A stretch of 50,058 nucleotides of DNA from a bacterium (GTDB lineage Bacteria > Patescibacteriota > Minisyncoccia > Sungbacterales > GWA2-42-14): the NCBI GenBank assembly GCA_030649305.1, contig JAUSFV010000010.1, positions 1-50,058 on the forward strand. Reading direction: 5' to 3'. Positions 12,790 through 47,702 of this stretch are shown piece by piece. The position numbers and the translations under genes are program-made. The notes under the pieces were generated by a model, which saw only the letters and a program-made list of their open reading frames with translations, had not been told where the DNA came from and searched no databases. The number at the start of each line of letters is the position of its first letter. Positions within the stretch are counted from its first letter, which is position 1.

Positions 12790-12849
12790 AATCCGAATCT
12801 ATGAATAGTATGCGAATGCCACGAATGAATGGGTGATTCGTATATTTGT
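12790..12849. repeat. degenerate CGAAT tandem-repeat hairpin upstream of ruvA
   Basis: ccgaat...atgaat...gcgaat...acgaatgaat followed by attcgtatatttgt. Confidence 0.6.
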
Positions 12850-13024
12850 CCCGACGTTTCTCCTAAAATCTGCAATAAAGAAGTCGGGATCCCACTATCC
12901 TTTATTATAACTCTAAAGTAGATAGCGGGATAGATTAGTATAAAATTTGTAGATTTGCATTATACAAGCGAAGCACAAAAAAAGCCGATATCCAAATTCA
13001 GGATACCGGCGCAAAAACTAGTTA

Positions 13025-13534
13025 TCAGCGCTCAATTACGACCACCAAAGATGCAATCGGCGCCTTTCCCTTATACAGGACAAATACGAGATTGCACGCT
13101 TCTTCTGTGTCGCAGTCAAAAACTTTTGCGATATCATCTCCCTGCTTCCAAGCGCCATCGATAAACAAATAATATCGTATGCCGTTTGGAGAGGCAATTG
13201 CTCCGTATACTCGTTTCCCGCCAGCATCATCCATAAAACCATAGGAGACAAGCGCGGCAATACAATTGGGATTCTCAATCTTTTTAATGCCGACAAAGAT
13301 TCGCTTTTCCGGATCGGGAAAATAACTAAGGCGATGCTCATAAATACGATACAATCCCCTTTCTTTAATCTTAATTTCATGCATCGCCCACGCGGAATTA
13401 TCTGGATCAAATTCCATGGGGCACGAATCTAATTTCTCCACGGCAAATGCCGTCGAAACAGACGCTAAAATCGTAAGTAAAAGAACAAAAACGCCAAGCC
13501 TACCCGGAATCTTCATTTTCCCCCTCCTTTTCAT
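13025..13534 (-). CDS. hypothetical secreted protein
   Basis: Signal peptide-like N-terminus (basic, hydrophobic, AFA) and four Cys. Confidence 0.65.
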   Translation of the reverse strand: MKRRGKMKIPGRLGVFVLLLTILASVSTAFAVEKLDSCPMEFDPDNSAWAMHEIKIKERGLYRIYEHRLSYFPDPEKRIFVGIKKIENPNCIAALVSYGFMDDAGGKRVYGAIASPNGIRYYLFIDGAWKQGDDIAKVFDCDTEEACNLVFVLYKGKAPIASLVVVIER

Positions 13535-13561
13535 ATCGATTATTTTAATATTATTTATTAT

Positions 13562-15589
13562 ATGAAATTCATCCTAAAAAGTCAATATAAACCGACTGGA
13601 GACCAACCGAGTGCCATCAACCAATTAACGGCAAACGTAAACACGGGCACACAACACCAAGCCCTGCTTGGCGTGACGGGTTCAGGAAAGACATTCACGA
13701 TGGCGAATGTAATTGAGCGTGTGCAAAAACCGACCCTCGTGATTTCGCACAACAAAACCCTAGCCGCACAGCTCTATCAGGAATTCAAAGAATTTTTTCC
13801 GGAGAATGCCGTACACTATTTTGTTTCCTATTACGACTACTATCAACCCGAAGCATATCTCCCCCAAACCGACACCTATATAGAAAAGGATGCAAAAATA
13901 AACGAGATGATTGATTCTCTGCGCCATGCCGCAACCGCTGATTTACTGATACGTGATGACGTAATCATTGTTGCTTCGGTCTCCTGCATCTACGGCATCG
14001 GAAGTCCCGAAGAATACAAAAAGGCGAGTATGGAAATAAAAATGGGGCAGAACATTTCACCCAAAACCCTCGCGCGCGATTTGGTGCTTTTGCAATACCG
14101 CCGCAACGACTACGACCCGCAGCGTGGAGAGTTTCGCATGCGCGGAGAACAGACGGAAATCTATTCGCCGTCGGGCGAAGAAATAATTGACATTGAATTT
14201 TCCGGCAACGCCGTCGTGTCAATCAAAAAACGGAAACAAAAAGAGGGGGGGCTACAAACTACAAGCCACCCTAGGGCGACCGCGCCCGGGCTAGCCAAGC
14301 TACAAGCTACTCACGTCTTCCCCGCAAAACACTTCGTAACCCCGAAGCAGAAACTCGCCTTTGCCATCCGTAATATTAAAAAAGAACTAAAGGAACGCCT
14401 CGTGGAATTAAAAAAGCGCGGCCACCCGCTTGAAGCCGAGCGCCTGAAACAGCGCACGAATTTTGATATGGAGATGCTCGAAAAAACGGGTTACGTAAAC
14501 GGCATTGAAAACTACTCGCGCCACTTGGATTTCCGGGAATCGGGCACTCCACCCTCAACACTCCTTGATTATTTTCGATATCGCGACACCAATACACGAA
14601 TGCACACGAATGACACAAATGTGCCACCCGATTTTCTTACCATCATCGACGAGTCCCATGTAACTATCCCGCAAATCCGCGGGATGTATTATGGTGACAA
14701 GGCGCGCAAAACTACGCTTGTTGAATACGGCTTCCGCCTGCCCTCCGCAATTGATAATCGCCCGCTAAAATTTGATGAATTTAATAAAAAAATTGGGCAA
14801 ACAGTCTATGTCTCAGCAACGCCCGCCGACTATGAACTGGAAAAATCAAAATCCCGCGTCGTCCAACAAATCATACGGCCAACCGGCATCCTTGACCCCG
14901 ACGTGGAGGTGCGCCCGACAAAAAACCAGATTAGAGATGTCATCAAAGAAATCAAAAAGCGCGTCGCGAAAAAAGAGCGCTCGCTCGTTATGGCGCTCAC
15001 CAAACGCCTCGCCGAAGACATTGCCGAATATCTGACGGAGGCGGGTATTAAAGCGGAATATCTCCACTCGGAAATTAAAACGCTTGAGCGCTCTGAAATC
15101 CTAAAAAAACTCCGCACAGGAGAACACGACGTTCTTGTTGGTATTAACCTTCTCCGCGAAGGCCTGGACTTGCCCGAAGTATCGTTCATCGCGATACTGG
15201 ACGCGGACAAAGAGGGGTTTTTGCGAAACGAAACAACGCTTCTCCAAATTATCGGAAGAGCAGCGCGCCACACCGATGGCAAAGTAATTTTATACGGCGA
15301 CACCATCACGAAATCAATGAGGGCCGCAATTCACGAAACCAAACGGCGCAGAAAAATTCAAGATGCATATAATAAAGCACACGGCATCACCCCGCAACAA
15401 ATTGAAAAAGCAATCCGAAAATCAATTTTGGAAGAGCAAAAACGGGAGGAAGAATTTCCGATTCTTGAGGGTACCGCCGGAGAAATAGCGAAGTCGCTTG
15501 AAAAAGAAATGCGCCGAGCCGCGCGGGAGCTCAATTTTGAATTGGCCGCAAAAATTAGAGATCGTATCAAGCGGATGAACGCGATTTGA
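13562..15589 (+). CDS. uvrB: excinuclease ABC subunit B
   Basis: GVTGSGKT, YYDYYQPEAY beta-hairpin, DESH, LLREGLD, C-terminal UVR domain. Confidence 0.97.
   Translation: MKFILKSQYKPTGDQPSAINQLTANVNTGTQHQALLGVTGSGKTFTMANVIERVQKPTLVISHNKTLAAQLYQEFKEFFPENAVHYFVSYYDYYQPEAYLPQTDTYIEKDAKINEMIDSLRHAATADLLIRDDVIIVASVSCIYGIGSPEEYKKASMEIKMGQNISPKTLARDLVLLQYRRNDYDPQRGEFRMRGEQTEIYSPSGEEIIDIEFSGNAVVSIKKRKQKEGGLQTTSHPRATAPGLAKLQATHVFPAKHFVTPKQKLAFAIRNIKKELKERLVELKKRGHPLEAERLKQRTNFDMEMLEKTGYVNGIENYSRHLDFRESGTPPSTLLDYFRYRDTNTRMHTNDTNVPPDFLTIIDESHVTIPQIRGMYYGDKARKTTLVEYGFRLPSAIDNRPLKFDEFNKKIGQTVYVSATPADYELEKSKSRVVQQIIRPTGILDPDVEVRPTKNQIRDVIKEIKKRVAKKERSLVMALTKRLAEDIAEYLTEAGIKAEYLHSEIKTLERSEILKKLRTGEHDVLVGINLLREGLDLPEVSFIAILDADKEGFLRNETTLLQIIGRAARHTDGKVILYGDTITKSMRAAIHETKRRRKIQDAYNKAHGITPQQIEKAIRKSILEEQKREEEFPILEGTAGEIAKSLEKEMRRAARELNFELAAKIRDRIKRMNAI
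14251..14310 (+). repeat. in-frame GCTACAA heptamer insertion with nested GC-rich hairpin, inside uvrB
   Basis: GCTACAA ACTACAA GCCA[CCCTAGGGCGACCGCGCCCGGG...]AAGCTACAAGCTAC, read as LQTTSHPRATAPGLAKLQAT. Related units at 23285-23311. Confidence 0.65.
14584..14620 (+). repeat. in-frame CACGAAT repeat arm inside uvrB
   Basis: CGACACCAATACACGAATGCACACGAATGACACAAAT nearly matches the intergenic arm at 28225-28258. Confidence 0.8.
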
Positions 15590-15614
15590 CAAATAAGACC
15601 ATTCTTTCTACACT
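15586..15614 (+). promoter_or_regulatory. sigma70 promoter for probably leaderless rpsT
   Basis: TTGACA-17 nt-TACACT, ending 6 nt before ATG 15621. Confidence 0.7.
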
Positions 15615-15620
15615 ACTCTC

Positions 15621-15888: not shown

Positions 15889-15954
15889 AAACGCTACCGA
15901 ATACGCCAATGGCGTTTCAATAGCGTATCGTTGGCGTATCTCGTGGCTTCTACG
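15889..15954. repeat. ACGC(C/T)A / T(G/A)GCGT repeat hairpin
   Basis: ~11-nt periodic units ending in TGGCTTCTACG, the same end as the element at 24467-24554. Confidence 0.65.
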
Positions 15955-16930
15955 GCAAAGGAATATCAAAATTGAGCCCCGTTTCCACTATCCTCATGAC
16001 GACTGACTCCGCCGGAAGAGTTCCGGTTTTGGCCAATATATCAGCGGTAAGCAGCCGCTGATATATTTTTTTAAGCTCAACAAGAGAAAAACGACCCGCT
16101 TGTATCATAAGTTTCTTTGCGACAAAAGTATGCATTCCTTCGTTGTTGGCAACACGCGCGCGCTCACCCACGTCTTTCGCTGATTTCAAAAGCAACATTC
16201 CGCGAACCGCGTTAACAAAAACCCCAAGCAATAACACGTCGTCAACGGCAGCAACGTTCTTCAGTGTATGCCACGCGCGCAGAGCATCGCGCCGCCCCTC
16301 AATAACCGCATCCGCAAGATGATATGGCTTTATCGACGAAACGCTGAACGATGAATTCTGAACGCCAAACAGTTCGTCTTTGGCGTTTGGCGTTTGGCGT
16401 TTGGCGTTTAATTGAATGAGCTCATATTTTTCAAGCTCCCGCACCATACGCCACGAATCGCCCCCCGCGGAAAGCAGCGCTTCTGTCGCCTCGCGCCCAA
16501 GCGAAATGCCGCGCTCTCGTGCCTCCTCCGTAATCAACCGCCGCAAAGTAGCGCCGTCGGGTAATGAAAATTCTTGGGTTTTCGCGGAATTTTTTTCCAA
16601 CAATACGGCAGTTTTTTTTCTCTTTTCGGAAATTAGGCGCTCCCAAAATATGATGATGGTATTCGCATCGTCTTTCCACGCGGGAAACCGGACCTCCAGA
16701 AATTTTGTATAGTCCTTTTTCGCAGCAAGCGCGTTTTCAATTACGATAAGCGTTTTTTGCTGAAACAGCGTGGCTGAATGCGGAGGCAATTTTTCAAACA
16801 AATCATCCTCCTCCGTGTCAAGGCGCGTACATCCTAAAACGCCCCCTGATTTTTTCTGGTAGGCGTCAATAAGTTCCCGCAATTTTTTACGGCTCCGATA
16901 GGTATCGGGGCCATGGAGAAAATAAATCAT
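15950..16930 (-). CDS. holA: DNA polymerase III delta subunit
   Basis: MIYFLHGPDTYR, ELEK, H.FVAKK, AD..AKTG. Convergent with rpsT, the typical arrangement. Confidence 0.88.
   Translation of the reverse strand: MIYFLHGPDTYRSRKKLRELIDAYQKKSGGVLGCTRLDTEEDDLFEKLPPHSATLFQQKTLIVIENALAAKKDYTKFLEVRFPAWKDDANTIIIFWERLISEKRKKTAVLLEKNSAKTQEFSLPDGATLRRLITEEARERGISLGREATEALLSAGGDSWRMVRELEKYELIQLNAKRQTPNAKDELFGVQNSSFSVSSIKPYHLADAVIEGRRDALRAWHTLKNVAAVDDVLLLGVFVNAVRGMLLLKSAKDVGERARVANNEGMHTFVAKKLMIQAGRFSLVELKKIYQRLLTADILAKTGTLPAESVVMRIVETGLNFDIPLP
16338..16410. repeat. in-frame heptamer inverted-repeat insertion inside holA
   Basis: Perfect (TTTGGCG)x4 at 16379-16406 facing the degenerate arm AAACGCT GAACGAT GAATTCT GAACGCC AAAC. 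Confidence 0.85.
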
Positions 16931-19074: not shown

Positions 19075-21774
19075 CTATAACTCCGCCCACGTCTTTCCCT
19101 CATGCGCGTCCACCGGAAACGGAACCGCGCCCTCAAAGCACGATTCCATAATTTTTTTAATTTCTGTTTTATAATGTTCTGATTTTTCTTCGCGCGCCTC
19201 AAAAATAAGTTCATCATGCACCTGCAAAAGCATCCGCAAATCCCCGCGCTTAAAATCTTCGGCAAACGCGGCCCAAATCCGTATCATGGCGCGCTTCAAA
19301 ATGTCCGCCGCCGTTCCCTGAATCGGCGCGTTTACCGCCATGCGCTCGGCTTCCGCCACTTCACGAAACCCGCCGGAAAAAAGCTGGGGCAAATACCGCC
19401 GCCTGCCGAATGCCGTCTCCACATACCCCTCGATGCGGGCTTTTTCTTTTGTCTCTGCAATATAATTCGCAATGCCCGAAAAATCGCTGAAATATTCGGA
19501 AAAAAACTTTTTTGCCTGTTCAAGCGGAATACCCGCACTCTCCGCAAACGAACGCACGCCCATGCCATAGAGAATTCCGAAGTTAAGCGCTTTTGCCGCA
19601 CGGCGCATCTCGGGCGTTACCTTTTCAATCGTCGTATCATTCACTTCCGCCGCGGTAAGCGTATGAATATCCATCCCGCGCGTGAACGCGTCAATCATCT
19701 TTTTGTCTCCCGCTAAATGTGCCGCAATCCGCAATTCCAATTGCGAATAATCAAACGCAAGAAAAGAAAAACCTTTTTCCGCAACAAACGCGGCGCGAAT
19801 TTCTTTGCCGCGCAGAGTTTTCGTAGGAATATTCTGTACATTGGGGTCAGATGAAGAAAGGCGCCCCGTAACGGTTCCTGTCTGGTGGAATGTCGTATGA
19901 ATTCTCCCGCCCAAGTCAACAAGCTTCGGAAGCGCCTCAATATACGTACTCTGTAGCTTTGCAAGTTCCCGATATTCAATAAGGAACGGAATGATGGGAT
20001 GTTCTTTCTGCATACGCGAAAGCTGGTCAATGTTGGTAGAAAGGCGTCCCGTTCCGGTTTTTTTTATGCGGGCACTCTTGCCAAGGCCAAGTTTCGTAAA
20101 AAGAATTTCCGAGAGCTGTTGCGAAGAATTGATATTAAATGATTCGCCGGCGTTCTTGTATATTTTTTCTTCAAGAATGCCTATCTCTTTTTTGGTTTTT
20201 TGCGAAAGTTTTAAAAGATACCCCGTATCAATCCCAATGCCCCAACGCTCCATTGCGGCAAGAATCACAGGAAGAGGCATTTCAAATTCTTCAAATATCC
20301 GGAGAAGCTGATTTTTTTCAAGATCATCTCGAAGGCGTCGGGCAATGCGCGGGAGAAGTGCAAGCAGGTCGCCCGTGCTTATATCAGCCACATCTTTTTG
20401 TAAAAACCACGACACAAGTTTTCCAAGCGAATAATCGCGCCTTCCGGGGTCTGCGATAAACCAAGCGAGCTTGCAATCAAAAAATGTTCCCCACCCCTCC
20501 GCAAACGGAGCTAATTTCAAAAACGCCTTAAGATCGTGCGTGATAAGGTCAACGCCTTTTGTCGCTGTAAAAAAATCTTCCGCCTCGCGGGAACGCAATA
20601 ATTTTTCCGGCACAGCGAAAAATTCCGAAGATCCCTCGGGCCTAAAGCCCGACCTAGTCCGACCGCGGACGGTCTCGGATGGCTCGGCCGTGTAGGGCAG
20701 AATAAAAAACGTTTTTGACGCCTCATCAAAAAGAAACGCGAGCCGCGTGCCGCGCAAGGAAGATACAGGAAGAAGATGCCAATCTTTGCCATTCGTAATT
20801 TTCACTTCTTTTTGTTTCGGCGCCTCCGTTTCTTTTTCAAAAAGCGTCGCCGGCCCCGGCGCTGTTCGCGTCTGTTCGTTTTCTGTTCGTGGCTGTTCGT
20901 GTAAACGTTTCAGAAAGCTCGAAAAGCCAAATTTTTCAAAAATAGGTTCGAGTTTGTCTTTATGAGATTGCATCCCCCGCCATTCGCCCTCTTCAAGCGT
21001 TACGGAAACGGGAGCGTCCCGCGCAATAAGCGCAAGTTCTTTTGAAATACGCGCGTTTTCTTCCCCCTCTTCAAGTTTTTTTCGTACAGAATCGGAAAAT
21101 GAAAATGCGCCCCTTTTTTTAAGAGCTTTGTAGGTATTTTCAACAGAGCCATATTTTTGCAAAAGTTCTGTTGCAATTTTTTCGCCAATTCCTTTAACTC
21201 CGGGGATATTATCCGAGGGGTCGCCCCGGAGCCCCTTATAATCCACAAGCATCTCGGGCCCGAAGCCAAACCGTTCGCGCACGGCTTTTTCATCATATAA
21301 AATCGTATCCGAAATGCCCTTTTTTAGGGTAAACACGGACACGCGCGGCCGCACGAGCTGGAGCGCGTCCAAATCGCCCGACACAATAACAACTTCATAA
21401 TCTTTCTTTTTTGAAAAACTTTCCGCGAGCGTCCCAATAACATCATCCGCCTCATACCCTTCTTTTTGAATGACCGGAATGCCAAATGCCTCAAGAATTT
21501 CGCGCACCATGGGAATTTGTGTGATAAGTTCATCCGGCGCTTTGGGGCGATGGGCCTTGTAGCGCTCATACGCAATATGGCGGAACGTTGGGCCCGGCAA
21601 GTCAAAGGCAGCAAACACAAAATCGGGTTCTAATTCCCCGAGCATTTTCAGAAGCATAGAGGTAAAACCGTATGCCGCCTGGCTTGGTTTGCCGTCGGGA
21701 GTGCGCAAACCCGGCAGCGCATGAAAGGCGCGATGGATAAGAGAATGGGAATCAATTAAGATAATGCGCTTCAC
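19075..21774 (-). CDS. polA: DNA polymerase I
   Basis: 5'-3' exonuclease (LIDSHSL, YEADDVIG, GDPSDN), TVTGRLSS, DYSQLELR, LQVHDEL. Start placed at GTG 21774, created by the MITE end. Confidence 0.95.
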   Translation of the reverse strand: MKRIILIDSHSLIHRAFHALPGLRTPDGKPSQAAYGFTSMLLKMLGELEPDFVFAAFDLPGPTFRHIAYERYKAHRPKAPDELITQIPMVREILEAFGIPVIQKEGYEADDVIGTLAESFSKKKDYEVVIVSGDLDALQLVRPRVSVFTLKKGISDTILYDEKAVRERFGFGPEMLVDYKGLRGDPSDNIPGVKGIGEKIATELLQKYGSVENTYKALKKRGAFSFSDSVRKKLEEGEENARISKELALIARDAPVSVTLEEGEWRGMQSHKDKLEPIFEKFGFSSFLKRLHEQPRTENEQTRTAPGPATLFEKETEAPKQKEVKITNGKDWHLLPVSSLRGTRLAFLFDEASKTFFILPYTAEPSETVRGRTRSGFRPEGSSEFFAVPEKLLRSREAEDFFTATKGVDLITHDLKAFLKLAPFAEGWGTFFDCKLAWFIADPGRRDYSLGKLVSWFLQKDVADISTGDLLALLPRIARRLRDDLEKNQLLRIFEEFEMPLPVILAAMERWGIGIDTGYLLKLSQKTKKEIGILEEKIYKNAGESFNINSSQQLSEILFTKLGLGKSARIKKTGTGRLSTNIDQLSRMQKEHPIIPFLIEYRELAKLQSTYIEALPKLVDLGGRIHTTFHQTGTVTGRLSSSDPNVQNIPTKTLRGKEIRAAFVAEKGFSFLAFDYSQLELRIAAHLAGDKKMIDAFTRGMDIHTLTAAEVNDTTIEKVTPEMRRAAKALNFGILYGMGVRSFAESAGIPLEQAKKFFSEYFSDFSGIANYIAETKEKARIEGYVETAFGRRRYLPQLFSGGFREVAEAERMAVNAPIQGTAADILKRAMIRIWAAFAEDFKRGDLRMLLQVHDELIFEAREEKSEHYKTEIKKIMESCFEGAVPFPVDAHEGKTWAEL
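20633..20688. repeat. GC-rich palindromic in-frame insertion in polA
   Basis: CCCTCGGGCCTAAAGCCCGA...GTCCGACCGCGGAC...CTCGG, read as AEPSETVRGRTRSGFRPEG. Confidence 0.55.
20861..20902. repeat. in-frame CTGTTCG(C/T) ~10-mer repeat in the polA linker
   Basis: Four units encoding HEQPRTENEQTRTA. Same family as 39606-39700 and 47978-48018. Confidence 0.75.
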
Positions 21775-21872
21775 CCCGTTAGAAATCACCTTTATATGAC
21801 TGGGACCAGCCAATTTCAGATGACAAAACTTAATGCGATAAACACCCCGCAAACTAAAAATTTCTAACGGGG
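21774..21872. mobile_element. MITE-like element, CCCCGTTAGA family, copy 2 (99 bp), in the tsaE/polA junction
   Basis: TIRs CCCCGTTAGAAAT / ATTTCTAACGGGG. TTCA duplicated at 21770-21773 and 21873-21876. Confidence 0.88.
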
Positions 21873-21873
21873 T

Positions 21874-22320: not shown

Positions 22321-22424
22321 ATGATGCCAATCCGATACGAATGCCATGCGAATTTGGCGAATTGCAAATCGGATAGCGTATTCGCAATTTGTAGATTGGC
22401 ATTTCATTTGTAGATTAGCATCAT
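22321..22424. repeat. CGAAT/ATTCG tandem-repeat hairpin upstream of tsaE
   Basis: Closed by ATGATGCCAATC / GATTAGCATCAT, with internal gcgaat and tttgtagatt repeats. Confidence 0.7.
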
Positions 22425-22498
22425 TTTTAGCGTAACAAAAAAAACGGGGCAGCGCATCCGTGATTGATGACAACTGCCCCATATTCGCATTCACAACC

Positions 22499-23323: not shown

Positions 23324-24457
23324 ATGAATGAACAAACGTTGAAATTCATCCGTTCTGCGAAAAAAATCGCAATTGTAATCGCTGATGAAGCGTCGGGCGA
23401 CCAGATTGGAGCCGCTCTCGGACTTTTGAATTCTCTGAATGCGGCGGGTAAAAAAGCGGAGTTCTTTTTTACAAACGAACTGCCGCCGCAATTTTTATTT
23501 TTGGCACCCTACTTTCCCGAAGAGGAGCCCGACGCCGAGAGCGCCGACTCGCTTCGGGATTTTGTTATTTCGCTTGACGCGAAAAAGCACGGCATTGAAG
23601 AAATACGCTACGAAAAAAATGGCGATACGCTTTCTATTATTCTTGGCGCCAGACAGGGCGTCTCTTCCGCGGATATCGCGATAGAAGCGGCGGATGATTA
23701 CGACCTCATCGTTTCGTTCGGCATCCCGAAACGCGAAAAGTTTCTGACAAAAGCGGGGACGAACGCATCAGGGATGGCGCGCACGCCCATACTTCTTCTC
23801 GCGCGGGAAGATATAAAAGAACATGATGCGGGTGCGGTACTCGCCGATATTTCAAAATCGTCATGGTGCGAACTTGTGTGGGACTTACTTGTTGCCGCAA
23901 ACAACAAAAAGGAAATTGCTGAAGCCGCCGCAACTCCTCTCCTTGCGGGGCTCTTTGCCGCAACCAACAACCTTCGATCACCGGATACCACCGTGGCATC
24001 GGCGGAGTTCGCGTCTCTCCTGGTCAAACACGGAGCGAAGCGCGAACTCATTCGAGAACACCTTGAACCGCCGAAAGAAACCTCCTTACATCTTATGCAA
24101 TTGTGGGGGCGCGCGCTTTCGCGCTCACGGATGGACGAAGAGACAAACATTCTTTGGTCATTTCTTCCTGCGGAGGATTTTCTCAAAACCGGCTCTACTT
24201 CAAAAGACCTCCCCCATGTTTTCTCACAAATGGAACACGCGGTTTCTTCTCCGCGCGGCTTTCTCTATGTTTTTGAAAATCCCCACAAAAACCACATTCG
24301 CGCGATTTTAAAATCAAAAGACAACATGCTTCTTGCCCGCGCCGCAGAATATGAGGCGGGCGACCTTTCCTCGGACGCTTTGATCCTTCACAAATCATTT
24401 ACGAGCTTCGCCGGGGCGGAAGAACATCTTCGCACTCTCCTCGCAAAAGTACTATAA
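23324..24457 (+). CDS. degenerate DHH/NrnA-like family protein
   Basis: N-terminal GDQIGAALG and A..LLAGL.AATN.LRSP resemble the DHH family, but the DHH triad is absent. Confidence 0.6.
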   Translation: MNEQTLKFIRSAKKIAIVIADEASGDQIGAALGLLNSLNAAGKKAEFFFTNELPPQFLFLAPYFPEEEPDAESADSLRDFVISLDAKKHGIEEIRYEKNGDTLSIILGARQGVSSADIAIEAADDYDLIVSFGIPKREKFLTKAGTNASGMARTPILLLAREDIKEHDAGAVLADISKSSWCELVWDLLVAANNKKEIAEAAATPLLAGLFAATNNLRSPDTTVASAEFASLLVKHGAKRELIREHLEPPKETSLHLMQLWGRALSRSRMDEETNILWSFLPAEDFLKTGSTSKDLPHVFSQMEHAVSSPRGFLYVFENPHKNHIRAILKSKDNMLLARAAEYEAGDLSSDALILHKSFTSFAGAEEHLRTLLAKVL

Positions 24458-24466
24458 TAAGGAGGA

Positions 24467-24554
24467 GAAGCCACAACGACGCTAAAAGATACGCCACAAA
24501 AACGCTATTGGCGTAATTTCTGGCGTAGTCGGTGGCGTACTGTTGGCTTCTACG
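24467..24554. repeat. ACGC(C/T)A / TGGCGT repeat hairpin before pilB
   Basis: Closed by GAAGCCA / TGGCTTC, with three units per arm. Confidence 0.7.
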
Positions 24555-26907: not shown

Positions 26908-27058
26908 CCACTCACCTCGAGGCAATTACCCCGGTCTAGGAACGCGGGGGTCAGGATTTTCCCGTGGCACACTCCAGTCGAAACCAGCGTGCCCAGCGTT
27001 AAAAAATCCCCATTAAGGCCAAATGGTATTAAAACCTTAATTGCCTCGAGATGAGTGG
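26908..27058. mobile_element. 151-bp TIR element (MITE-like)
   Basis: TIR CCACTCACCTCGAGGCAATTA / TAATTGCCTCGAGATGAGTGG (20/21). Confidence 0.7.
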
Positions 27059-28218: not shown

Positions 28219-28223
28219 ACCCG

Positions 28224-28306
28224 CCACAAATACACGAATGGGCACGAATGACACTAATAGAAAATCGTATTCGTGACATTCGTGAAAATTTTGTGTATTG
28301 GTGTCG
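28224..28306. repeat. CACGAAT/ATTCGTG tandem-repeat hairpin
   Basis: Left arm CACAAATACACGAATGGGCACGAATGACAC. Right arm ATTCGTGACATTCGTG...TTGTGTATTGGTGTCG. Confidence 0.8.
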
Positions 28307-29325: not shown

Positions 29326-29374
29326 GGTTGCAAAATGTCCTACCTCCGCTATACTTAAAAAATCCAAAGTTGCA

Positions 29375-29434
29375 TAGTAGGTAGTGAGTAGTTAGTAGCA
29401 CTTGCTGCCGACTATTTACTACCAACTACTTACT
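29375..29434. repeat. TAGTNAG/CTNACTA heptamer hairpin before yebC
   Basis: TAGTAGG TAGTGAG TAGTTAG TAG ... ACTATTT ACTACCA ACTACTT ACT, ending 4 nt before the ATG. Confidence 0.75.
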
Positions 29435-29438: not shown

Positions 29439-30155
29439 ATGTCCGGTCACAGCAAGTGGGCGCAAATCAAACACAAAAAGGCTGCGTCGGATGCTAAAAA
29501 AGGAAATCTTTTTTCAAAGCTTTCGCGCATGATTACCGTTACCGCAAAAGGGGGTTCTGACCCCGCAACGAACGCGTCTTTGCGCGTGGCGATTGAGAAG
29601 GCTAGGGGATTTTCGCTTCCCCAGCACAATATTGAGCGCGCCATACAAAAAGCAGAGGAAAAAAAATCGGGCGAGGGGTTAGAAGAAGTACTCTATGAGG
29701 CATACGGCCCAGGCGGAAGCGCCTTACTTATAGAAGGCATCACGGATAATAAAAACAGGACTACCGCAGAAATCAAACACCTCCTCTCGGAATACGACGG
29801 GAAACTCGCAGAAAAAGGAACGGTTCTCTGGCTTTTTGAACGGGTCGCGGTACTTGAAATTGCACGGGATACCAAAAAAAGCGCGGAAGATATTGAACTT
29901 GCTCTCATCGACGCGGGGGTAAACGATACCGCCACGGAAGAAGAAATTGTTTACGGATTTTTCGCCCCGGATACTTTAGAAAACACAAAAGAAAAATTAG
30001 GCGCCTCCGGCTTCCCCATAAAAGACGCGTATTGTGCGTGGCGCGAAAAAAATCAGATGTCGCTCGCAGAAAACCAAAAAGAAAAATTCATAAAACTTAT
30101 GGAGGCGCTTGACGCGCATGATGATGTGCAGGAAGTATATACCAATATAAACTAA
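29439..30155 (+). CDS. yebC: YebC/PmpR family protein
   Basis: MSGHSKWAQIKHKK, YEAYGPGG, TDNKNRT, DDVQEVY. Confidence 0.95.
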   Translation: MSGHSKWAQIKHKKAASDAKKGNLFSKLSRMITVTAKGGSDPATNASLRVAIEKARGFSLPQHNIERAIQKAEEKKSGEGLEEVLYEAYGPGGSALLIEGITDNKNRTTAEIKHLLSEYDGKLAEKGTVLWLFERVAVLEIARDTKKSAEDIELALIDAGVNDTATEEEIVYGFFAPDTLENTKEKLGASGFPIKDAYCAWREKNQMSLAENQKEKFIKLMEALDAHDDVQEVYTNIN

Positions 30156-30233
30156 CAACCTACCACCAACAACCAACAACAAACGACGGTGCGCCGCGAC
30201 GTGTTGTTGGTTGTAAGTTGTCAGTTGTGCGTT
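30150..30233 (+). mobile_element. gene-less copy of the four-helix-bundle heptamer cassette
   Basis: 5' arm 32/34 and 3' arm 30/37 identical to the arms flanking 46796-47155. Fills the space from the yebC stop to the ruvC ATG. Confidence 0.8.
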
Positions 30234-30738: not shown

Positions 30739-30828
30739 TAGAAGCAAAATTAGACACAAGCGGGAACGCGAAATCAGACGCAATTGCGTTAGCGGTTGCG
30801 TATTAATTTGCGTTTATCATTGCTTCTA
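30739..30828. repeat. ACGC/TTGCGT repeat hairpin
   Basis: Closed by TAGAAGCAA / TTGCTTCTA, with three TTGCGT units. Confidence 0.6.
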
Positions 30829-30997: not shown

Positions 30998-31036
30998 AAA
31001 AATCAACCCCGACAAAACGTCGGGGTTGATTTTTTT
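30998..31036. terminator. bidirectional intrinsic terminator
   Basis: AAAATCAACCCCGAC-AAAAC-GTCGGGGTTGATTTT. Confidence 0.8.
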
Positions 31037-31045: not shown

Positions 31046-32218
31046 TTACGCAACCCGAAATATTTTCCGTTTCCCGACTTTTATAATATCGCCGGAAGCT
31101 ATTGCTATCTCCGCGTATGCGTCTTTCAACACTTGTTGGTTAATTTCAACGGCTCCCGGTATGATGAGGCGCCTTGCTTCACTCTTAGATAACGCAAACC
31201 CAACCTCAAGAAGAAGCTCGGGGAGTGTATATGTTTTTTTCTTTAAACGGCGCGAAGGAATATTTGAAAGATCTTTTTTAGAAAAAAGCTTTACAAAATT
31301 TTCGCAGGCTCGGCGCGCTTTTTCTTTTCCGTGATACAGGCCCGCAACGCGCTCTGCCAATTCAAGCTTCAAATCCCGTGGATTCTTACTGTCCTTGGGG
31401 TCCCACCGAGGAAGTTCATCAACGGGGACAAAAGCGGCAAGCTCTGCGTAATGGAATATAAGAGAATCAGGAATAGACATAATTTTTCCGACCATCTCGT
31501 CAGCGCTGTCGGTAAGAGCAATATAATTCCCGAGTGACTTTGACATTTTGTGCTTCCCGTCAAGTCCGATAAGGAGCGGGAGGAGCACCAAATCCTGCTC
31601 CGGATACCCTATCTTTTTTTGCAATTCGCGCCCCGCAAGCAAGTTTAATTTCTGATCCATGCCGCCAAGCTCAACATCGGCGCGCACCGCAACCGAATCG
31701 TATGCCTGCATGATCTGATACAGGGTTTCATGATGTGCCACCTCTTCTCCTTGTTCCAGGCGCCGCTTAAAATCCTCGCGGTCCAAAATGCGGTTCGTGG
31801 AAAAATTTCCGACAACACGAAGAAACTCGGCAAGTTTCATTTTGGAAAACCATTCGCTGTTGTAATGAATTTCCGCCTTTTTCAAATCAATAATCCGGCC
31901 TACTTGTTCAAAGTAGGTTTTGGCGTTTTTTTTGATTTCTGCATCCAAAAGAGGCGGACGCGCTTTTGTTTTGCCGGAGGGGTCACCGATTGCCGCGGTG
32001 TAGTCGCCGATAATAAAAACCGCCGTATGCCCTGCGTCCTGAAATTCACAAAGTTTTCTCAGGACAAGCGCGTGCCCCAAATGCAAATCGGGCGCCGTCG
32101 GATCCGCCCCTAATTTCACCCGAAGTTTTCGACCCGAGGAAAATTTCTTTTCAAGCGAAACCTGATCAATAATTTCTTCGGCAAGCGAAAAAATATCGCC
32201 GTAAAGATTCTTTTTCAC
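31046..32218 (-). CDS. tyrS: tyrosine--tRNA ligase
   Basis: GADPTAPDLHLGH (HIGH), YQIMQAYD, KMSKS, C-terminal S4 domain. The G of its GTG start belongs to the MITE. Confidence 0.96.
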   Translation of the reverse strand: MKKNLYGDIFSLAEEIIDQVSLEKKFSSGRKLRVKLGADPTAPDLHLGHALVLRKLCEFQDAGHTAVFIIGDYTAAIGDPSGKTKARPPLLDAEIKKNAKTYFEQVGRIIDLKKAEIHYNSEWFSKMKLAEFLRVVGNFSTNRILDREDFKRRLEQGEEVAHHETLYQIMQAYDSVAVRADVELGGMDQKLNLLAGRELQKKIGYPEQDLVLLPLLIGLDGKHKMSKSLGNYIALTDSADEMVGKIMSIPDSLIFHYAELAAFVPVDELPRWDPKDSKNPRDLKLELAERVAGLYHGKEKARRACENFVKLFSKKDLSNIPSRRLKKKTYTLPELLLEVGFALSKSEARRLIIPGAVEINQQVLKDAYAEIAIASGDIIKVGKRKIFRVA

Positions 32219-32343
32219 CCCGTTAGAAGTCTGCCGTTATATGGCCAACAACCAATTTCAGACAGACACGACAATAGATATAACCCCGCTTGTTTGATGT
32301 GGAAAAAATTACTAATTTTTTCCACCAAAGACTTCTAACGGGG
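32218..32343. mobile_element. MITE-like element, CCCCGTTAGA family, copy 3 (126 bp), in the tyrS start codon
   Basis: TIRs CCCCGTTAGAAGTCT / AGACTTCTAACGGGG. TTCA at 32214-32217 and 32344-32347. Extra internal hairpin TGGAAAAAATT-ACT-AATTTTTTCCA. Confidence 0.88.
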
Positions 32344-32402
32344 TTCATACTTCTTCATCATACGGCATTTCGGGTGAATTTGCAAAACATAGAAAATATG
32401 CT

Positions 32403-34901: not shown

Positions 34902-34935
34902 AAAACAGCCCCGACGTTACGTTGGGGCTGTTTTT
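34901..34935. terminator. bidirectional intrinsic terminator
   Basis: AAAAACAGCCCCGACG-TTA-CGTTGGGGCTGTTTTT. Confidence 0.8.
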
Positions 34936-37747: not shown

Positions 37748-37874
37748 CGCAAACCACCCCAGAGGAAATATTATGAGAACCTCTCTATTATGAATCAGGC
37801 GCGCAAGAACCACTAATCAAAAAAATAGAATAAGCTGTTTATAACATGTTGATATGCTTATGTTTGTTTTTCAG

Positions 37875-37981
37875 CCCCGTTAGAAGTTTAGAACTCCTCG
37901 TCTTAAGAACAATAAAGAGGCAGTTCGGTCGTATTGGATAGATTCTGGATACGTTTATCGTGCGTTTGACTTCTAACGGGG
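37875..37981. mobile_element. MITE-like element, CCCCGTTAGA family, copy 4 (107 bp), between dnaA and rpmH
   Basis: TIRs CCCCGTTAGAAGT / ACTTCTAACGGGG. Flanks TCAG / TCAA (imperfect duplication). Interior differs from copies 1-3. Confidence 0.8.
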
Positions 37982-38509: not shown

Positions 38510-38512
38510 ACT

Positions 38513-38812
38513 ATGCGAACAGCAAAAACTCTTTTTTTATTTTGCATCTTCGTATATCAGAAAACCGTATCACCCGATCACGGAATATTTTTTTCCGCTC
38601 GAGGCGGATCCGCCTTCGGCGGATATTCATTGCGCCGCTGTCGTTTCTCCCCTTCTTGTTCAGAGTATAGCAGCGAGGCACTCCGTCAATATGGACTTTT
38701 GAAAGGTAGCGTGTTGTCTTTGGCAAGAATTTTTCGTTGCGGCCCGTGGAGTCGCGGCGGGTACGACCCCGTGCGGCAAAATTCCAAATTTCAAGCACCA
38801 AATTACAAATAA
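38513..38812 (+). CDS. yidD: membrane protein insertion efficiency factor
   Basis: YQKTVSP, CRFSPSCSEY, RIFRCGPW, GGYDP. Confidence 0.9.
   Translation: MRTAKTLFLFCIFVYQKTVSPDHGIFFSARGGSAFGGYSLRRCRFSPSCSEYSSEALRQYGLLKGSVLSLARIFRCGPWSRGGYDPVRQNSKFQAPNYK
38594..38623. repeat. 30-bp double-hairpin in-frame insertion in yidD
   Basis: TCCGCTCGAGGCGGATCCGCCTTCGGCGGA, read as SARGGSAFGG. Confidence 0.75.
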
Positions 38813-38903
38813 ATCTCAAACAGAAAAATTCCAGCGTGTTTAGAATTTCGGTCATTTGAATTTAGAATTTGTTTGTGATTTGGAATTTGTGATTTAGGTT
38901 TTT
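38778..38903. repeat. AAAT(T/C)NC heptamer inverted-repeat element at the yidD/yidC junction
   Basis: AAATTCC AAATTTC AAGCACC AAATTAC AAAT facing TTTGTGA TTTGGAA TTTGTGA TTTAGG. Supplies the yidD C-terminus and stop. Confidence 0.8.
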
Positions 38904-38908
38904 CGTCC

Positions 38909-39658
38909 ATGAATCCTCTTTCTTTTGTCTATCATACTTTTTTTTATCAACCGTTATTTAACGGCCTTATTTTGTTATATTTGGCGCTTCCGTATCAGGA
39001 TCTGGGTCTTGCCATTGTCGTTTTTGTTATTTTGGTACGCCTAATTCTTCTGCCGATTTCCGTGCATGGTGTGCGCACGCAAAAACGATTAGCGGAACTC
39101 CAGCCGCACATAAAAGAACTTCAGGAAAAACACAAAGAAGACAAAGAAGCGCTTTCCCGGGGCTTGATGGAATTATATAAAACACACAAAGTAAACCCCT
39201 TTTCCGGATGCGCTCCCCTGATTCTACAGGGCTTTTTTCTTTTCGCGCTCTATCGGATATTTTTTAATGGGTTCGGCCAAGATTCTCTTTCGGCGCTTTA
39301 TTCTTTTATCCAACAGCCCGGATTTATTAATCCGGTAAGCTTCGGGTTTTTGGATGTGTCGCAGTCAAATAAGATTCTTGCGATCCTCGCGGGCGTGTCG
39401 CAGTATGTGCAGGCGCTCGTCATGCCGCAACCTCCGGCGGGGGCGTCACGCGGAGGCCCGGATTTTCAAAAAATCCTTTCGTCCCAAATGAAATATTTTT
39501 TCCCGTTCCTCATCGCCACCATCTCTTGGTCGCTCCCGGCGGCCCTTCCCTTGTACTGGACGGTTTTAAACGTTTTTGGTATAGTACAGCAGATAGTTTT
39601 GGATAAAACACAAACAGACGCGAACAGTAATAAACACAAACAGACGCGAACCGATTAG
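38909..39658 (+). CDS. yidC: membrane protein insertase YidC (short form)
   Basis: GLAIV, RLILLP, LQP.IK.LQ, VNPFSGC, PAALPLYW. Confidence 0.93.
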   Translation: MNPLSFVYHTFFYQPLFNGLILLYLALPYQDLGLAIVVFVILVRLILLPISVHGVRTQKRLAELQPHIKELQEKHKEDKEALSRGLMELYKTHKVNPFSGCAPLILQGFFLFALYRIFFNGFGQDSLSALYSFIQQPGFINPVSFGFLDVSQSNKILAILAGVSQYVQALVMPQPPAGASRGGPDFQKILSSQMKYFFPFLIATISWSLPAALPLYWTVLNVFGIVQQIVLDKTQTDANSNKHKQTRTD

Positions 39659-39700
39659 CTGTTGGCGCCCGTTCGCTTCGCTGTTCGTGTCTGTTCGCGT
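39606..39700. repeat. ACAGACGCGAAC 10-mer inverted-repeat element at the yidC/jag junction
   Basis: AAACACAAACAGACGCGAAC twice, facing CTGTTCGTGTCTGTTCGCGT. Supplies the yidC tail. Confidence 0.8.
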
Positions 39701-39705
39701 ACATC

Positions 39706-40223: not shown

Positions 40224-40258
40224 AAAACACAAAATGAAAATTGAAAAATTTCGGTAAT

Positions 40259-40286
40259 ACAAAAGCCGCCCAAGGGCGGCTTTTGT
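40259..40286. terminator. bidirectional intrinsic terminator
   Basis: ACAAAAGCCGCCC-AA-GGGCGGCTTTTGT. Confidence 0.8.
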
Positions 40287-40288
40287 GT

Positions 40289-41500
40289 TTATTTTAATTT
40301 CAGCCTCCAGAGCGTTAAATCGTTTTTATCCTGGAAGAAAAGATATTGTTCGTCAGGCGAGAGAAAAAGATTAATTGCATCAATCTGAGTTTTATCCGAA
40401 ATCCCTTCAGCGACGAGCGTATCCGGGGGAATTCGCACGAATTGGTCTTGAAGCGCCATATCTCCGCGGAGCCACGCATCGGGAAGATCGGCGTCATTTT
40501 GTGGGATGGCACAAAGAATGGTTTTTGCGTCTTTTGTGAAGACGCATTTTTCCGCAAGCGTTGGGGGCGTGATTGTTTTCGGAATTTCTCCCTTTTGGTT
40601 TGTGAGCGCGAGGGCAATGCGCCCGTCTTCTCCCACAAATGAGGTAAGGAGAGCAGCGCCGTCGGGGCTTGCAATTGTCATATTTCCCCGGATAGTACCG
40701 AATATTTTTTCAAGCGCTTTCGTTCCCGTATCAAACAAATACACAATGCCGGGCGACTGGTTTGAGGGCGCGGATTGCAGAAGAATTTTTTTTGGCGCGA
40801 TCCACAGAAGCGAAAAATCAGGAATCGGTGTTTCAAAGACCACGCGTGGAGTTTTTCCGTCTTCCGTCGCGGTAATGAGTTGCGTCGCGTCACCTTTTGG
40901 CAGGAGATACGCAAGCGAACGCGAGTCGGGAGAAAAATCAAACGAACGGATGTCCTTGGGGAGAAATACAACGCCAGTGGTTGCGGTTGTGTTGATAAAT
41001 CGTTTTACTGTTGTGCCTTCTTGATATGAAACAACACTGCGACGTTTTGCGTCTTGCCACACGACGTCAAACATTCCGACAATGGTAAGGGGCGAGACCT
41101 GTTCCGCGGCTCCTCCGGAAAAATCAATCATTTCTAATTTCCCTCCGCTTCGCACATAGTAAATTATTTTTCCGCCATCCGCGGTAAGGGTTGCGCCAAG
41201 GATTGGTTTTTTTACAATTTGCAGAAGTTCGGTCTCCACGGCTTCCTCGCCGTCGATTTCTCCGTCGGTTTCGCCACCGGTTCCTCCCTCTTCCTCAATG
41301 CCCCCAGGCGGTATTGTTGTATCTCCACCTCCTCCGCCTCCCCCTCCCGACTCACCGATTTGGGGCAGGATGCCGAAAAGATTTTTTACCGTTTTTGTTT
41401 TGTCGGGACGATTGATATACCACAGTATGCCGAGCGCGATTAAAATTACGGCGGCGGTGCCCCCGATGACAAGAATTAAAGTTTTTCGGTTTATAGTCAT
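40289..41500 (-). CDS. membrane-anchored beta-propeller-like (TolB-like) surface protein
   Basis: N-terminal TM, Gly/Glu linker, repeated SPD blade motifs. Confidence 0.7.
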   Translation of the reverse strand: MTINRKTLILVIGGTAAVILIALGILWYINRPDKTKTVKNLFGILPQIGESGGGGGGGGDTTIPPGGIEEEGGTGGETDGEIDGEEAVETELLQIVKKPILGATLTADGGKIIYYVRSGGKLEMIDFSGGAAEQVSPLTIVGMFDVVWQDAKRRSVVSYQEGTTVKRFINTTATTGVVFLPKDIRSFDFSPDSRSLAYLLPKGDATQLITATEDGKTPRVVFETPIPDFSLLWIAPKKILLQSAPSNQSPGIVYLFDTGTKALEKIFGTIRGNMTIASPDGAALLTSFVGEDGRIALALTNQKGEIPKTITPPTLAEKCVFTKDAKTILCAIPQNDADLPDAWLRGDMALQDQFVRIPPDTLVAEGISDKTQIDAINLFLSPDEQYLFFQDKNDLTLWRLKLK

Positions 41501-43886: not shown

Positions 43887-43960
43887 AATTCATGAATGAC
43901 GAATTAGGAATTGGGGACCTTGGCTGTTCCTGGTTCATAATTCTTACTTCCTGATTCCTG
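43887..43960. repeat. CAGGAAT/ATTCCTA heptamer hairpin forming the virB4 3' end
   Basis: Minus strand CAGGAAT CAGGAAG TAAGAAT TATGAAC CAGGAAC ... CCAATT CCTAATT CGTCATT CATG. Confidence 0.7.
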
Positions 43961-45906: not shown

Positions 45907-46035
45907 ACCGCGCACATAAAATGGTATTGCGTGTACGCCCAATAAAGGCGCGGGGGCGATTCATGACTCATTGCGAAATGATTACAAATCTTTCTTACGA
46001 ACCACGCAGGCGTCATACCATTTTATGTGCGCGGT
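45907..46035. mobile_element. 129-bp element with perfect 21-bp TIRs
   Basis: ACCGCGCACATAAAATGGTAT / ATACCATTTTATGTGCGCGGT. Homologous to 28562-28693. Confidence 0.8.
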
Positions 46036-46747: not shown

Positions 46748-46752
46748 AATAT

Positions 46753-47192
46753 AACCAACAACCAACAACTTACAACTAACCACACGACGATTGCTCTATT
46801 TTTGTAATTTTTTTTTAAAACCACCCAACTGATTTGAGATGCTATCGCATTTCAGATATACCTCTCTAAATTCTGTGTCGGTGGCAAGGTTATTTCCGTT
46901 TAAAACATCAGCGCCTGCCAACGTTTCATTTACGGAACCGAGCGCGATTTCTATAAACCGGTTGAGTTCTTTATCTGATGTCTTTCCACTTCCCTCTGCG
47001 ATGTTGAGAATAACAGAGAAAGCCGATCTGATGATTTGGCTTCCCAATTCATATCGATATTCTCTTGGTAGTTTTTTGACGATTTTTAGGATAAGCGCAA
47101 GGAGCCCCTTTGCTTCTTGGTATACCCGCCATTTTAGGAATCTGAATTTATCCACGTTTTTGTTGTTAGTTGTTGGTGGTAAGTTGTTAGTT
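46753..47192 (-). mobile_element. four-helix-bundle cassette bounded by inverted heptamer arms
   Basis: Arms (AACYWAC)n at 46753-46789 and (GTTRGTT)n at 47156-47192 enclose a single gene. Confidence 0.75.
46796..47155 (-). CDS. four helix bundle protein (TIGR02436 / 23S rRNA IVP family)
   Basis: F..W.VYQ, LPREYRYELGSQIIRSAFSV.LNIAEGSG, RFIEIALGSVNE. Confidence 0.9.
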   Translation of the reverse strand: MDKFRFLKWRVYQEAKGLLALILKIVKKLPREYRYELGSQIIRSAFSVILNIAEGSGKTSDKELNRFIEIALGSVNETLAGADVLNGNNLATDTEFREVYLKCDSISNQLGGFKKKLQK

Positions 47193-47200
47193 AGGAAAAA

Positions 47201-47608
47201 TTACCTCTGTAATTTTTCCTTTATATCCAAGCTCCACGCCAAGTCATTTAATTTGCTTTCCGTCAGCTTGGTAAGCCCGACGGGCGCCGTTGCTTTTTTT
47301 GCCGCTTCCCCCGTTATAAGTTCGGGGCGCTTTTTTTTCCATATGTAGAGCCGCGGCCGTACAAAGTAATGGAAGCCGTTCAGGATGACTTTTGCGAGCG
47401 GTTGTTCATTGACTTTCAAATAGGCGAGCGATACGGAAAGGGAGGCAATCGGAATGGAGAAAATAATAAATGCAACCATCTCAAATACATTCCAAAAAAT
47501 CACCACGATGCCAAGCCCCGCGATGAGATAAATAAATTGCCGGAGCGTAAACGGCCCGAAAATCTTGTCTTCTACGGTAATAAATTGAGGAACTTGATAC
47601 TGTCTCAC
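47201..47608 (-). CDS. PrgI family protein (VirB3-like)
   Basis: YQVPQFITVEDKIFGPFTLRQF, two TM helices, KVNEQP, PRLYIWKK. GTG start at 47608. Confidence 0.85.
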   Translation of the reverse strand: MRQYQVPQFITVEDKIFGPFTLRQFIYLIAGLGIVVIFWNVFEMVAFIIFSIPIASLSVSLAYLKVNEQPLAKVILNGFHYFVRPRLYIWKKKRPELITGEAAKKATAPVGLTKLTESKLNDLAWSLDIKEKLQR

Positions 47609-47611
47609 GGT

Positions 47612-47702
47612 AACTGACAACCAACCACCCACAACTTATAACAGGCGACGTTTTGACTTGGTGTGTTATTAGTTGTTTGTTGTTGGTTGTACGTTGTTGG
47701 TT
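47612..47702 (-). mobile_element. second gene-less heptamer cassette
   Basis: AACTGAC AACCAAC CACCCAC AACTTAT facing (GTTRKTT)n. Spans the upstream stop to the prgI GTG. Confidence 0.7.

Follow-up and report, generated by a model that had tools for sequence, protein, structure and literature searches.

Tandem-unit hairpins between protein genes of a Patescibacteria genome as probable gene-less copies of IVS-like insertion cassettes

The closest described system to the elements treated here is the intervening sequence (IVS) of the 23S rRNA gene that bears an open reading frame (ORF). The passages of the published account that deal with the IVS of Coxiella burnetii describe a 28-bp terminal stem, tandem GACAGAT heptamers that vary in number between strains, an S23p ORF and cleavage by RNase III in the stem's middle (PMC4990558). 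The present work is centred on hairpins built of short tandem units in a stretch of 50,058 nucleotides (positions 1 to 50,058 of contig JAUSFV010000010.1, assembly GCA_030649305.1), which is analysed at its full length and called the window. It makes up one entire contig (C31) of a genome of 1.02 Mb (G000; 54 contigs, 46.7% G+C, 94.7% complete), and its gene content, including dnaA-dnaN, rnpA-yidD-yidC-jag, ruvABC, pilB, PrgI, a type IV secretion system pilin and a VirB4-like ATPase, is typical of the Candidate Phyla Radiation (CPR) or Patescibacteria. Both DNA runs covering most of the window are labelled as groundwater metagenome. G000 is the only member of its genus among the 62 genomes of the order that were compared, the closest YebC in this genome set being 58% identical, and a scan of metagenomes for close relatives by means of a bPH-domain protein gave no match above 46% identity. 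No publication dealing with IVS-type or tandem-unit hairpins between the protein genes of CPR bacteria came up in a search of the full-text literature (supplements excluded).

In common with the 23S rRNA IVS the elements have a stem, heptamers and an ORF of the same family (PF05635/TIGR02436), and both G000 and G026, a complete genome of the same order, hold a cassette of this kind in an rRNA gene, but in the 16S. Unlike the 23S elements, the window copies are located in the mRNA spacers of protein genes and mostly lack an ORF; there is a second cargo family, GxxExxY, with its own style of arm, and some cassettes are read in frame within lepA or recG. Excision by RNase III has been shown for Coxiella and would be extended to the present elements by analogy.

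Three other systems are worth comparing. As in the systems of repetitive extragenic palindromes (REP, REPIN) and their associated tyrosine transposases (RAYT), the palindromes are intergenic and dispersed, with a single-copy gene between inverted copies and many gene-less copies of the same type. Unlike in REP-RAYT, the cargo is no Y1 transposase, and no Y1 (HUH) gene is flanked by these repeats. G000 does contain three PF01797 genes (Y1 transposase, RAYT-like), which have plain palindromes of 21-23 nt of their own (CTATAGAGGCTTAGCCTCTATAG; TGTCAAGACGAAATCTCGACA; TGTTTGAAGTCGGACTTCAAACA), unrelated to the tandem-unit arms and present in several copies at each locus (L140-L142; C4:1500-2200, C23:440-1290, C37:3900-4700); these are classical REP-RAYT units standing beside the tandem-unit hairpins. 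Heptamer repeats are also known from cyanobacteria as short tandemly repeated repetitive (STRR) sequences. For the TAACTGA repeats of marine Beggiatoaceae and some cyanobacteria, the relevant passages of the report give a single unit in 169 direct sets and one inverted set, the largest class ending about 1 nt before a start codon without a ribosome-binding site (PMC4679880). As far as those passages go, the likeness consists of intergenic heptamer arrays adjoining starts, and the difference is that here the units are many, the arrays are always inverted and they are tied to cargo genes. Finally, as in miniature inverted-repeat transposable elements (MITEs), there are short copies without a gene, scattered over non-orthologous sites, whose ends are those of longer gene-carrying elements. 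Unlike in MITEs, the arms have an internal periodicity and a single hairpin makes up the whole element; no transposase was seen, nor any target-site duplication in the flanks inspected by eye.

The hairpins of the window are probably gene-less copies of IVS-like palindromic insertion cassettes, selfish and tolerated by the host. Such a cassette is built of two inverted arms of short tandem units, the full-length members having a single small ORF in the apical loop. The order holds two classes of them, one carrying a four-helix-bundle gene (S23p/TIGR02436) between degenerate heptamer arms and the other a GxxExxY gene (PD-(D/E)XK-like, TIGR04256) between arms with CGNAT- or ACGC-type cores spaced by about 8-12 nt. 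According to this reading, copies of many arm families would have landed independently in the few nucleotides between a stop codon and the next start, and hence the apparent crowding of starts. Once inserted, the palindrome may fold out of the mRNA, leaving the stop and the start adjacent at the stem base, so that expression of the downstream gene would survive. As in the rRNA IVS, the stem of 20-35 bp could possibly be cut by RNase III, whose gene is found at C10:3269-3664, which would leave a very short leader.

Gene-carrying cassettes are found in the window itself and throughout the order. A full cassette (46753..47195, minus strand) is flanked by prgI and by the gene with its start at 46747, 5 nt away. 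It consists of an AACCAAC arm (46753-46789), a four-helix-bundle gene (46796-47155) and the inverted arm (47156-47195), and the ORF matches PF05635 at 3.4e-26 as well as TIGR02436. With three further copies elsewhere, G000 has four PF05635 ('23S rRNA IVS protein') genes, all of them in the loops of inverted heptamer arms and each with a different unit: GATTTAA, AACCAAC, an AGCTTCT-like unit and AATTTCT, the last at C2:1065-1352. The single PF13366 (GxxExxY) gene of G000 is flanked by arms of the ATTCTGCGT type. PF05635 was detected in 48 of the 62 genomes of the order, with about 150 matches, and PF13366 in 25, with roughly 65 loci. Flanks were analysed for 34 four-helix-bundle and 28 GxxExxY cassettes, that is, for the loci returned by the searches together with the copies of G000 and G026. 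Inverted arms aligning with a score of at least 25 were present in 30 of the 34 and 26 of the 28, respectively. When the enclosed genes were tabulated, the style of the arms was found to track the gene family: arms of period 7 flank 25/34 four-helix-bundle genes and 0/28 GxxExxY genes (Fisher p = 4e-10), the GxxExxY arms having a period of 8-12 nt in 15 cases and no clear period in the other 13. Two or more CGNAT/ACGC cores occur in 20/28 GxxExxY and 1/34 four-helix-bundle cassettes, a descriptive figure as the motif was defined on the same arms. Arm types therefore do enclose genes, as the first-pass annotation of the window had supposed, but its suggestion that each repeat type has a small cargo gene of its own does not hold: only two cargo families were seen and one of them spans dozens of units, the four-helix-bundle class showing a different heptamer in nearly every cassette.

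Cassettes of both classes are also located inside rRNA or protein genes. In G000 (C45:760-1330) and G026 (677685-678246) the 16S rRNA gene is interrupted in its 5' part by a four-helix-bundle cassette whose arm units differ between the two genomes, and G026 has in addition a gene-less hairpin of its 16S-cassette unit type just upstream of the 16S. None of the 12 window sites is inserted in an rRNA helix, all being between protein genes or at their ends. The GxxExxY cassette of G000, including its arms (C34:7775-8116, L117), is read in frame within LepA (elongation factor 4), between GITIK and DTPGH; residues 70-227 (158 residues) are considered an insertion because the LepA of G026 is contiguous across this point. 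In-frame GxxExxY cassettes were found in the LepA of G000, G004, G023, G035 and G025 and, between the DEQH box and SATPIPRT, in the RecG of G016, G012, G021, G035 and G041 (the loci of the relatives being L110-L112, L115, L116, L122, L124, L136 and L139). The LepA of G000 has a second extra stretch of 22 residues (445-466), possibly a pair of arms without a gene that is read in frame.

The kinship between gene-less hairpins and cassettes was analysed by a comparison of the hairpins of the window with cassette flanks (57 cassettes of other genomes of the order, sampled from about 215 matches listed in it), with 20 shuffles per site as control. Clear partners with GxxExxY cargo were obtained for the hairpin at 22321 (G005, L128; z score 16.9, arms about 80-90% identical), for that at 28224, which is collinear with the CACGAAT arms of a cassette in G019 (L130; z 23.3), and for that at 30739 (G058, L129; z 15.4). 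Cassettes with a four-helix-bundle gene match the elements at 43887 (G016, L036; z 13.4) and 29375 (G040, L017; z 11.0). The hairpins at 30150 and 47612 have arms in common with the AACCAAC cassette of the window, which was omitted from the 57-cassette comparison. Hairpin and cassette align collinearly, the left half of the former corresponding to the left arm of the latter and the right half to the right arm, with the junction at the apical loop, where the cassette carries its ORF and a linker of 10-35 nt. The matching cassettes are hosted by other junctions, namely prfB-ftsE (G005, G058, G040), rpoB-rpoC (G016) and pilC-pilin (G019), and since these sites are non-orthologous the hairpins are dispersed copies. 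Related to this, the arms are about 80-90% identical between genera, whereas YebC is only about 48-58% identical (about 48% between G000 and G005). This comparison speaks for dispersal, probably with transfer from lineage to lineage, and against decay in place. Thus, of the earlier idea that the hairpins are empty cassette remnants, the arm matches uphold the part that makes them gene-less counterparts of gene-carrying cassettes, and the location of those cassettes at other junctions goes against the part that would have them decayed where they stand.

Some junctions seem to have been used repeatedly. Unrelated periodic hairpins (z -2.8 to -5.9) occupy the yebC-ruvC spacer in G000 (AACCAAC), G004 (AACATGA), G023 (GGTTTTAGTT) and G006 (AGCTTGT); arrays in G005 and G016 are marginal or degenerate, and in G002, G015, G007 and G011 the two genes are separated by 3 nt or overlap. 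The prfB-ftsE junction is occupied in G000 by a GATTTAA hairpin, in G005 and G058 by GxxExxY cassettes and in G040 by one with a four-helix-bundle gene. These cases hint at hot spots but give no measured rate, because the junctions were picked after a hairpin had been seen in them. Starting from G026, four of ten hairpin sites have neighbours that are also adjacent in G000, and among these four there are one proper hairpin and two solo arrays, small numbers in all. The rpoB-rpoC spacer of G000 (C23:11340-12045, about 700 nt) contains a long palindrome without periodicity together with a NUDIX-like ORF and, ending 9 nt ahead of the rpoC start, a solo TAAATCN x4 array; the same junction in G016 has a four-helix-bundle cassette.

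Regarding the reality and the number of the hairpins, all 12 sites of the window listed by the first-pass annotation exist and, on reading, each carries the unit named for it. Folding of the sense RNA was compared with 200 dinucleotide shuffles per site, and ten of the 12 fold far better than their shuffles (z -2.65 to -4.99; 0-2 of the 200 shuffles fold as well), the same number having terminal inverted repeats with a long stem; 12790 and 43887 are weak sites. Rfam gave no family at gathering score in the window. Genome-wide, a census of inverted tandem-array pairs based on Tandem Repeats Finder (TRF; period of at least 7, gap of at most 100 nt) recovered 44 inverted pairs in G000, 30 of them with period 7, against 0 in each of five dinucleotide shuffles and only 5 direct pairs in the genome. 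TRF and fold-based detection together give 55 elements, which is an undercount, as the list includes no more than 3 of the 12 window sites. Of the 336 spacers of 35-260 nt examined (on 37 of the 54 contigs), 118 contain a hairpin with 16 pairs or more and a z not above -3; simple rules class 23 of these as periodic or cored, 9 as short and terminator-like and leave 86 without a class. The label 'other' fell to 75 spacers, many of which, uncounted, look by eye like degenerate hairpins of the arm type. The DNA contigs tend to break at hairpins. As to density, the 44 inverted pairs of G000 (1.02 Mb) compare with 12 in G026 (0.92 Mb; 10 sites after merging) and with 3-4 in more distant metagenome loci that total 262 kb.

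The placement of the elements is tight to the nucleotide. Genes and start codons were called with a crude caller of our own, taking the first in-frame start 3' of the hairpin; the choice is backed by the beginnings of Pfam domains for ruvA, tsaE, ruvC and prgI, and the distances to starts are our reading of the stem bases from folds and sequences. Among the 55 elements, 41 have both neighbours called, of which 37 are co-directional, 2 divergent, none convergent and 2 odd, the baseline of neighbouring gene pairs being 652 co-directional, 93 convergent and 90 divergent. For the 37 co-directional elements, the median gap to the stop upstream is 1 nt and that to the first in-frame start 5 nt. In 30/41 elements neither residual exceeds 16 nt, against 0.66% for random insertion into hairpin-free spacers (a null of 0.0066), so the positions are far from random in intergenic space. 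It had been proposed that the arms crowd translation starts, and in the window the stem bases are indeed 1-10 nt from the assigned starts. Stops, however, are hugged as closely, and because both residuals are small the elements can be said to fill the spacer from stop to start without any specific crowding of the latter. A Shine-Dalgarno-like motif precedes only 1 of the 47 hairpin-adjacent starts, in comparison with 18% of 687 genes (peak at -13 to -9). Stop codons in the 5' arm are modestly enriched, with a mean of 4.7 versus 3.6 (Wilcoxon p = 0.006), but all three frames are blocked in 22 versus 19 of 37. As had been noticed, several elements supply the stop codon of the upstream gene, which is the case for yebC, yidD, yidC and the VirB4-like gene. 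In the ribosomal-protein operon of C11 the hairpins lie between its genes. An orientation signal, in which the same arm seemed always to come first, was discarded as void, given that an inverted repeat reads identically on both strands.

Going along the window, the first site is a direct CGAAT array (12783..12860, minus strand), 7 nt upstream of the ruvA start (ATG 12782). Its sense fold has a z of +0.85 and there is hardly any inverted partner; it is a degenerate or half element with no convincing hairpin. The ACGCCA-type hairpin at 15893..15947 (the 15889 site; -27.6 kcal/mol, z -4.36) has no assigned strand and is placed in a convergent spacer, between the stops of rpsT (15878) and holA (15950). 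On the minus strand, a long hairpin with CGAAT-type cores (22321..22425; z -4.59) precedes the tsaE start (ATG 22314) by 6 nt and follows a canonical terminator located at about 22445-22490. A second ACGCCA-type hairpin (24466..24551, plus strand; the 24467 site, z -4.96) lies between the stop of a DHH-family gene (24457) and pilB, 6 nt away if ATG 24558 is the start, and a promoter-like site is located at 24429-24458. The CACGAAT hairpin (28222..28306, plus strand; the 28224 site, z -4.05) begins 3 nt past the ruvB stop (28218) and ends 7 nt ahead of ATG 28314, with further copies at C28:53929 and C44:3053.

The elements that follow, up to jag, are all on the plus strand. A TAGTNAG heptamer hairpin (29375..29428; z -4.99) lies in the yebC leader, 4-10 nt from the start (ATG 29439), with a promoter-like site upstream at 29328-29355. 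The whole yebC-ruvC spacer is occupied by an AACCAAC hairpin (30150..30233; z -3.86), which has the yebC stop (30153-30155) within its 5' arm and ends 1 nt from ruvC (ATG 30235). Between the ruvC stop (30722) and ATG 30835, 6 nt away, there is a TAGAAGCA...ACGCAA hairpin (30739..30828; z -4.53) with sister copies at C26:7518 and C3:7467. The AAATTNC hairpin (38775..38907; the 38778 site, z -2.67, present in the TRF census) separates yidD, whose stop (38810-38812) is in the 5' arm, from yidC (ATG 38909), 1-10 nt from the start. Next to it, a hairpin with a 10-nt unit, ACAGACGCGA (39608..39700; the 39606 site, z -3.40), encodes the tail of YidC in its 5' arm, contains the yidC stop (39656-39658) in its loop and lies 5 nt from jag (ATG 39706). 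In a contig of depth 3.6 from run X3, belonging to a related organism, 16 other letters replace 39597-39702. Back on the minus strand, the CAGGAAT element (43887..43960) overlaps the 3' end of the VirB4-like gene, includes its stop (43904) and is 7 nt ahead of the start at 43879; its sense fold has a z of -0.45 and the antisense folds better (-20.3 vs -11.8 kcal/mol). The last hairpin, a gene-less AACCAAC element also on the minus strand (47612..47695; z -2.65), lies between the stop of the gene at 47701-48729 and the prgI start (GTG 47608), 3 nt away. The 47701-48729 ORF itself contains AACCAAC-type heptamer arrays (47771-47864, 48158-48194 and 48278-48360), of the same unit as the neighbouring hairpins, which give repeats rich in N, Q, T and P; no Pfam match was obtained for its product of 342 residues.

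These data may be read in other ways. IVS-type hairpins could be a general punctuation of operon transcripts in ultra-small bacteria poor in Shine-Dalgarno motifs, that is, domesticated elements that selection maintains as sites of RNase III processing or else as bridges that fold out between termination and reinitiation, an idea that we put forward tentatively and consider rather unlikely. The polycistronic mRNA would be cut by RNase III in the stem, or coupled by a terminating ribosome that crosses the stem base, and translation would begin at a start that lacks a Shine-Dalgarno motif and has a free 5' end or the preceding stop a few nucleotides away. The medians of 1 and 5 nt at the stem base, the single Shine-Dalgarno-like motif in 47 starts, the hairpins of the C11 operon, the different families at the same junctions across genera, the RNase III encoded in the genome and some hairpins placed directly after promoter-like sites, as 5'-terminal stems would be, all agree with it. 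On the other hand, the hairpin is not required at a junction where several relatives have 3 nt or an overlap, its density varies several-fold between related genomes, two window copies are decayed and there is no significant preference for folding of the sense strand; the selfish and tolerated cassette is ranked above domesticated punctuation because of the last point and because some copies have decayed. The arms might also be putative binding arrays at the DNA level for a host regulator or for the cargo proteins themselves (the GxxExxY nuclease or a pentamer of the four-helix-bundle protein), acting as double-stranded operators or as cruciform or single-stranded substrates and not as RNA. 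The four-helix-bundle arm types do recur gene-less in their own genome (4/4 in G000, 3/3 in G026, units read by us), the arms are conserved across genera far above protein level (about 80-90% vs about 48% for YebC, G000-G005) and both strands fold about equally. But the CACGAAT, 22321-type and 30739-type hairpins have no cognate cargo in the 94.7%-complete G000, whose sole GxxExxY gene copy has different arms, and a period of 7 bp mismatches the helical repeat of double-stranded DNA, which makes this proposal improbable.

Tandem repeats are substrates of replication slippage, and the units vary from site to site, so an origin in place from a seed heptamer and its complement, with neither mobility nor cassette kinship, has also to be taken into account. 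The number of heptamers differs among Coxiella strains in the passages on its IVS (PMC4990558). Yet ordered irregular arms (AGCTTGTAGGAATTAGCTTGTAG and those of 22321) recur at non-orthologous sites in different genera and slippage alone does not produce a matching inverted arm, and we regard this origin as very improbable. Hardly any credence can be given to ordinary intrinsic terminators or attenuators: the elements are stable intergenic stem-loops and one of them (15889) is between convergent genes, but 0/41 of the TRF-defined hairpins are convergent and 37 lie within co-directional runs, and their arms extend right to the next start codon. The clear terminators of the window (30998-31034, 34901-34935, 40256-40289, 16035-16067 and 12984-13010) are G+C-rich stems flanked by A/T runs, unlike the periodic hairpins, which are A+T-rich and without T runs and in which a terminator scan catches only small inner sub-stems.

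The reading of the hairpins as gene-less, selfish cassette copies has, in turn, several points that weigh against it. Concerning placement, the start rule is biased toward small residuals, although by chance a start would fall within three codons in only about 13% of cases, and the TRF set under-samples the irregular hairpins of the GxxExxY type, one of which (15889) is in a convergent spacer. As for homology, the matches of 39606 (to L136, z 4.1) and 12790 (to L125, z 3.0), both with GxxExxY cassettes, are weak, and no partner for 15889, 24467 or 38778 was found among the 57 cassettes sampled (z about 1, 2.5 and -0.4). With regard to mobility, no target-site duplication was seen in the flanks inspected by eye, no transposase was seen either, the cassettes carrying a nuclease-fold or four-helix-bundle gene, and no gain or loss of a periodic hairpin at strain level was noticed except for the hint of the low-depth contig at 39597-39702. 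At the RNA level, folding in vivo and cutting by RNase III are predictions here, and at the cassettes read in frame within lepA and recG a cut by RNase III would necessarily destroy the mRNA. The sense strand is the more stable in 23 hairpins and the antisense in 13 (Wilcoxon p = 0.08), the antisense folding much better for 30150, 43887 and C6:12558; such near-equal folding of the strands is as compatible with neutral or selfish DNA as with an RNA function.

Other repeats were met in the window. An element of about 105 nt with 14-nt terminal inverted repeats (ACCCCGTTAGAAGT...) is present at 1094-1196, 21773-21873, 32217-32344 and 37875-37981, and the last copy exists in some cells only, because otherwise perfect contigs of X1 and X2 skip exactly 37871-37981 (111 nt). 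A family of about 130 nt with terminal inverted repeats of 21-23 nt ending in AAAATGGTATA occurs at 28562-28693, 45907-46035 and 26908-27058 and gave no Rfam match. Between an EamA-like gene and the ruvA stop there is a near-perfect palindrome of 40 nt (12160-12199), with two AACATTC-type octamers per arm and with five more copies (AACATTCTAACATTCT gc AGAATGTTAGAATGTT) in the genome and one in G026. Finally, a TTTGGCG x4 array with an imperfect inverted partner (16339-16409) is read in frame in the holA ORF (15950-16930), at a position that in DNA polymerase III delta is between the N-terminal part and the C-terminal domain.

The elements described here have consequences beyond this window. 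For the annotation of CPR genomes, it is important to note that start calls based on the longest ORF extend into the arms and that the arms supply stops and short C-terminal tails. If punctuation were true, a selfish insertion of the rRNA type would have turned into a part of normal gene expression, the same element being also tolerated within rRNA and, read in frame, within LepA and RecG. To our knowledge, the function and spread of the rRNA IVS and of the very large four-helix-bundle and GxxExxY families have been without explanation for decades. In G000 this type of element is mostly found outside rRNA, a long hairpin being present in about one third of the mid-sized spacers examined. As the element comes with and without a gene, in two cargo classes that differ in their style of arm, and is inserted at stop-start junctions with single-nucleotide precision, what has been a curiosity of rRNA becomes a genome-wide system that can be tested.

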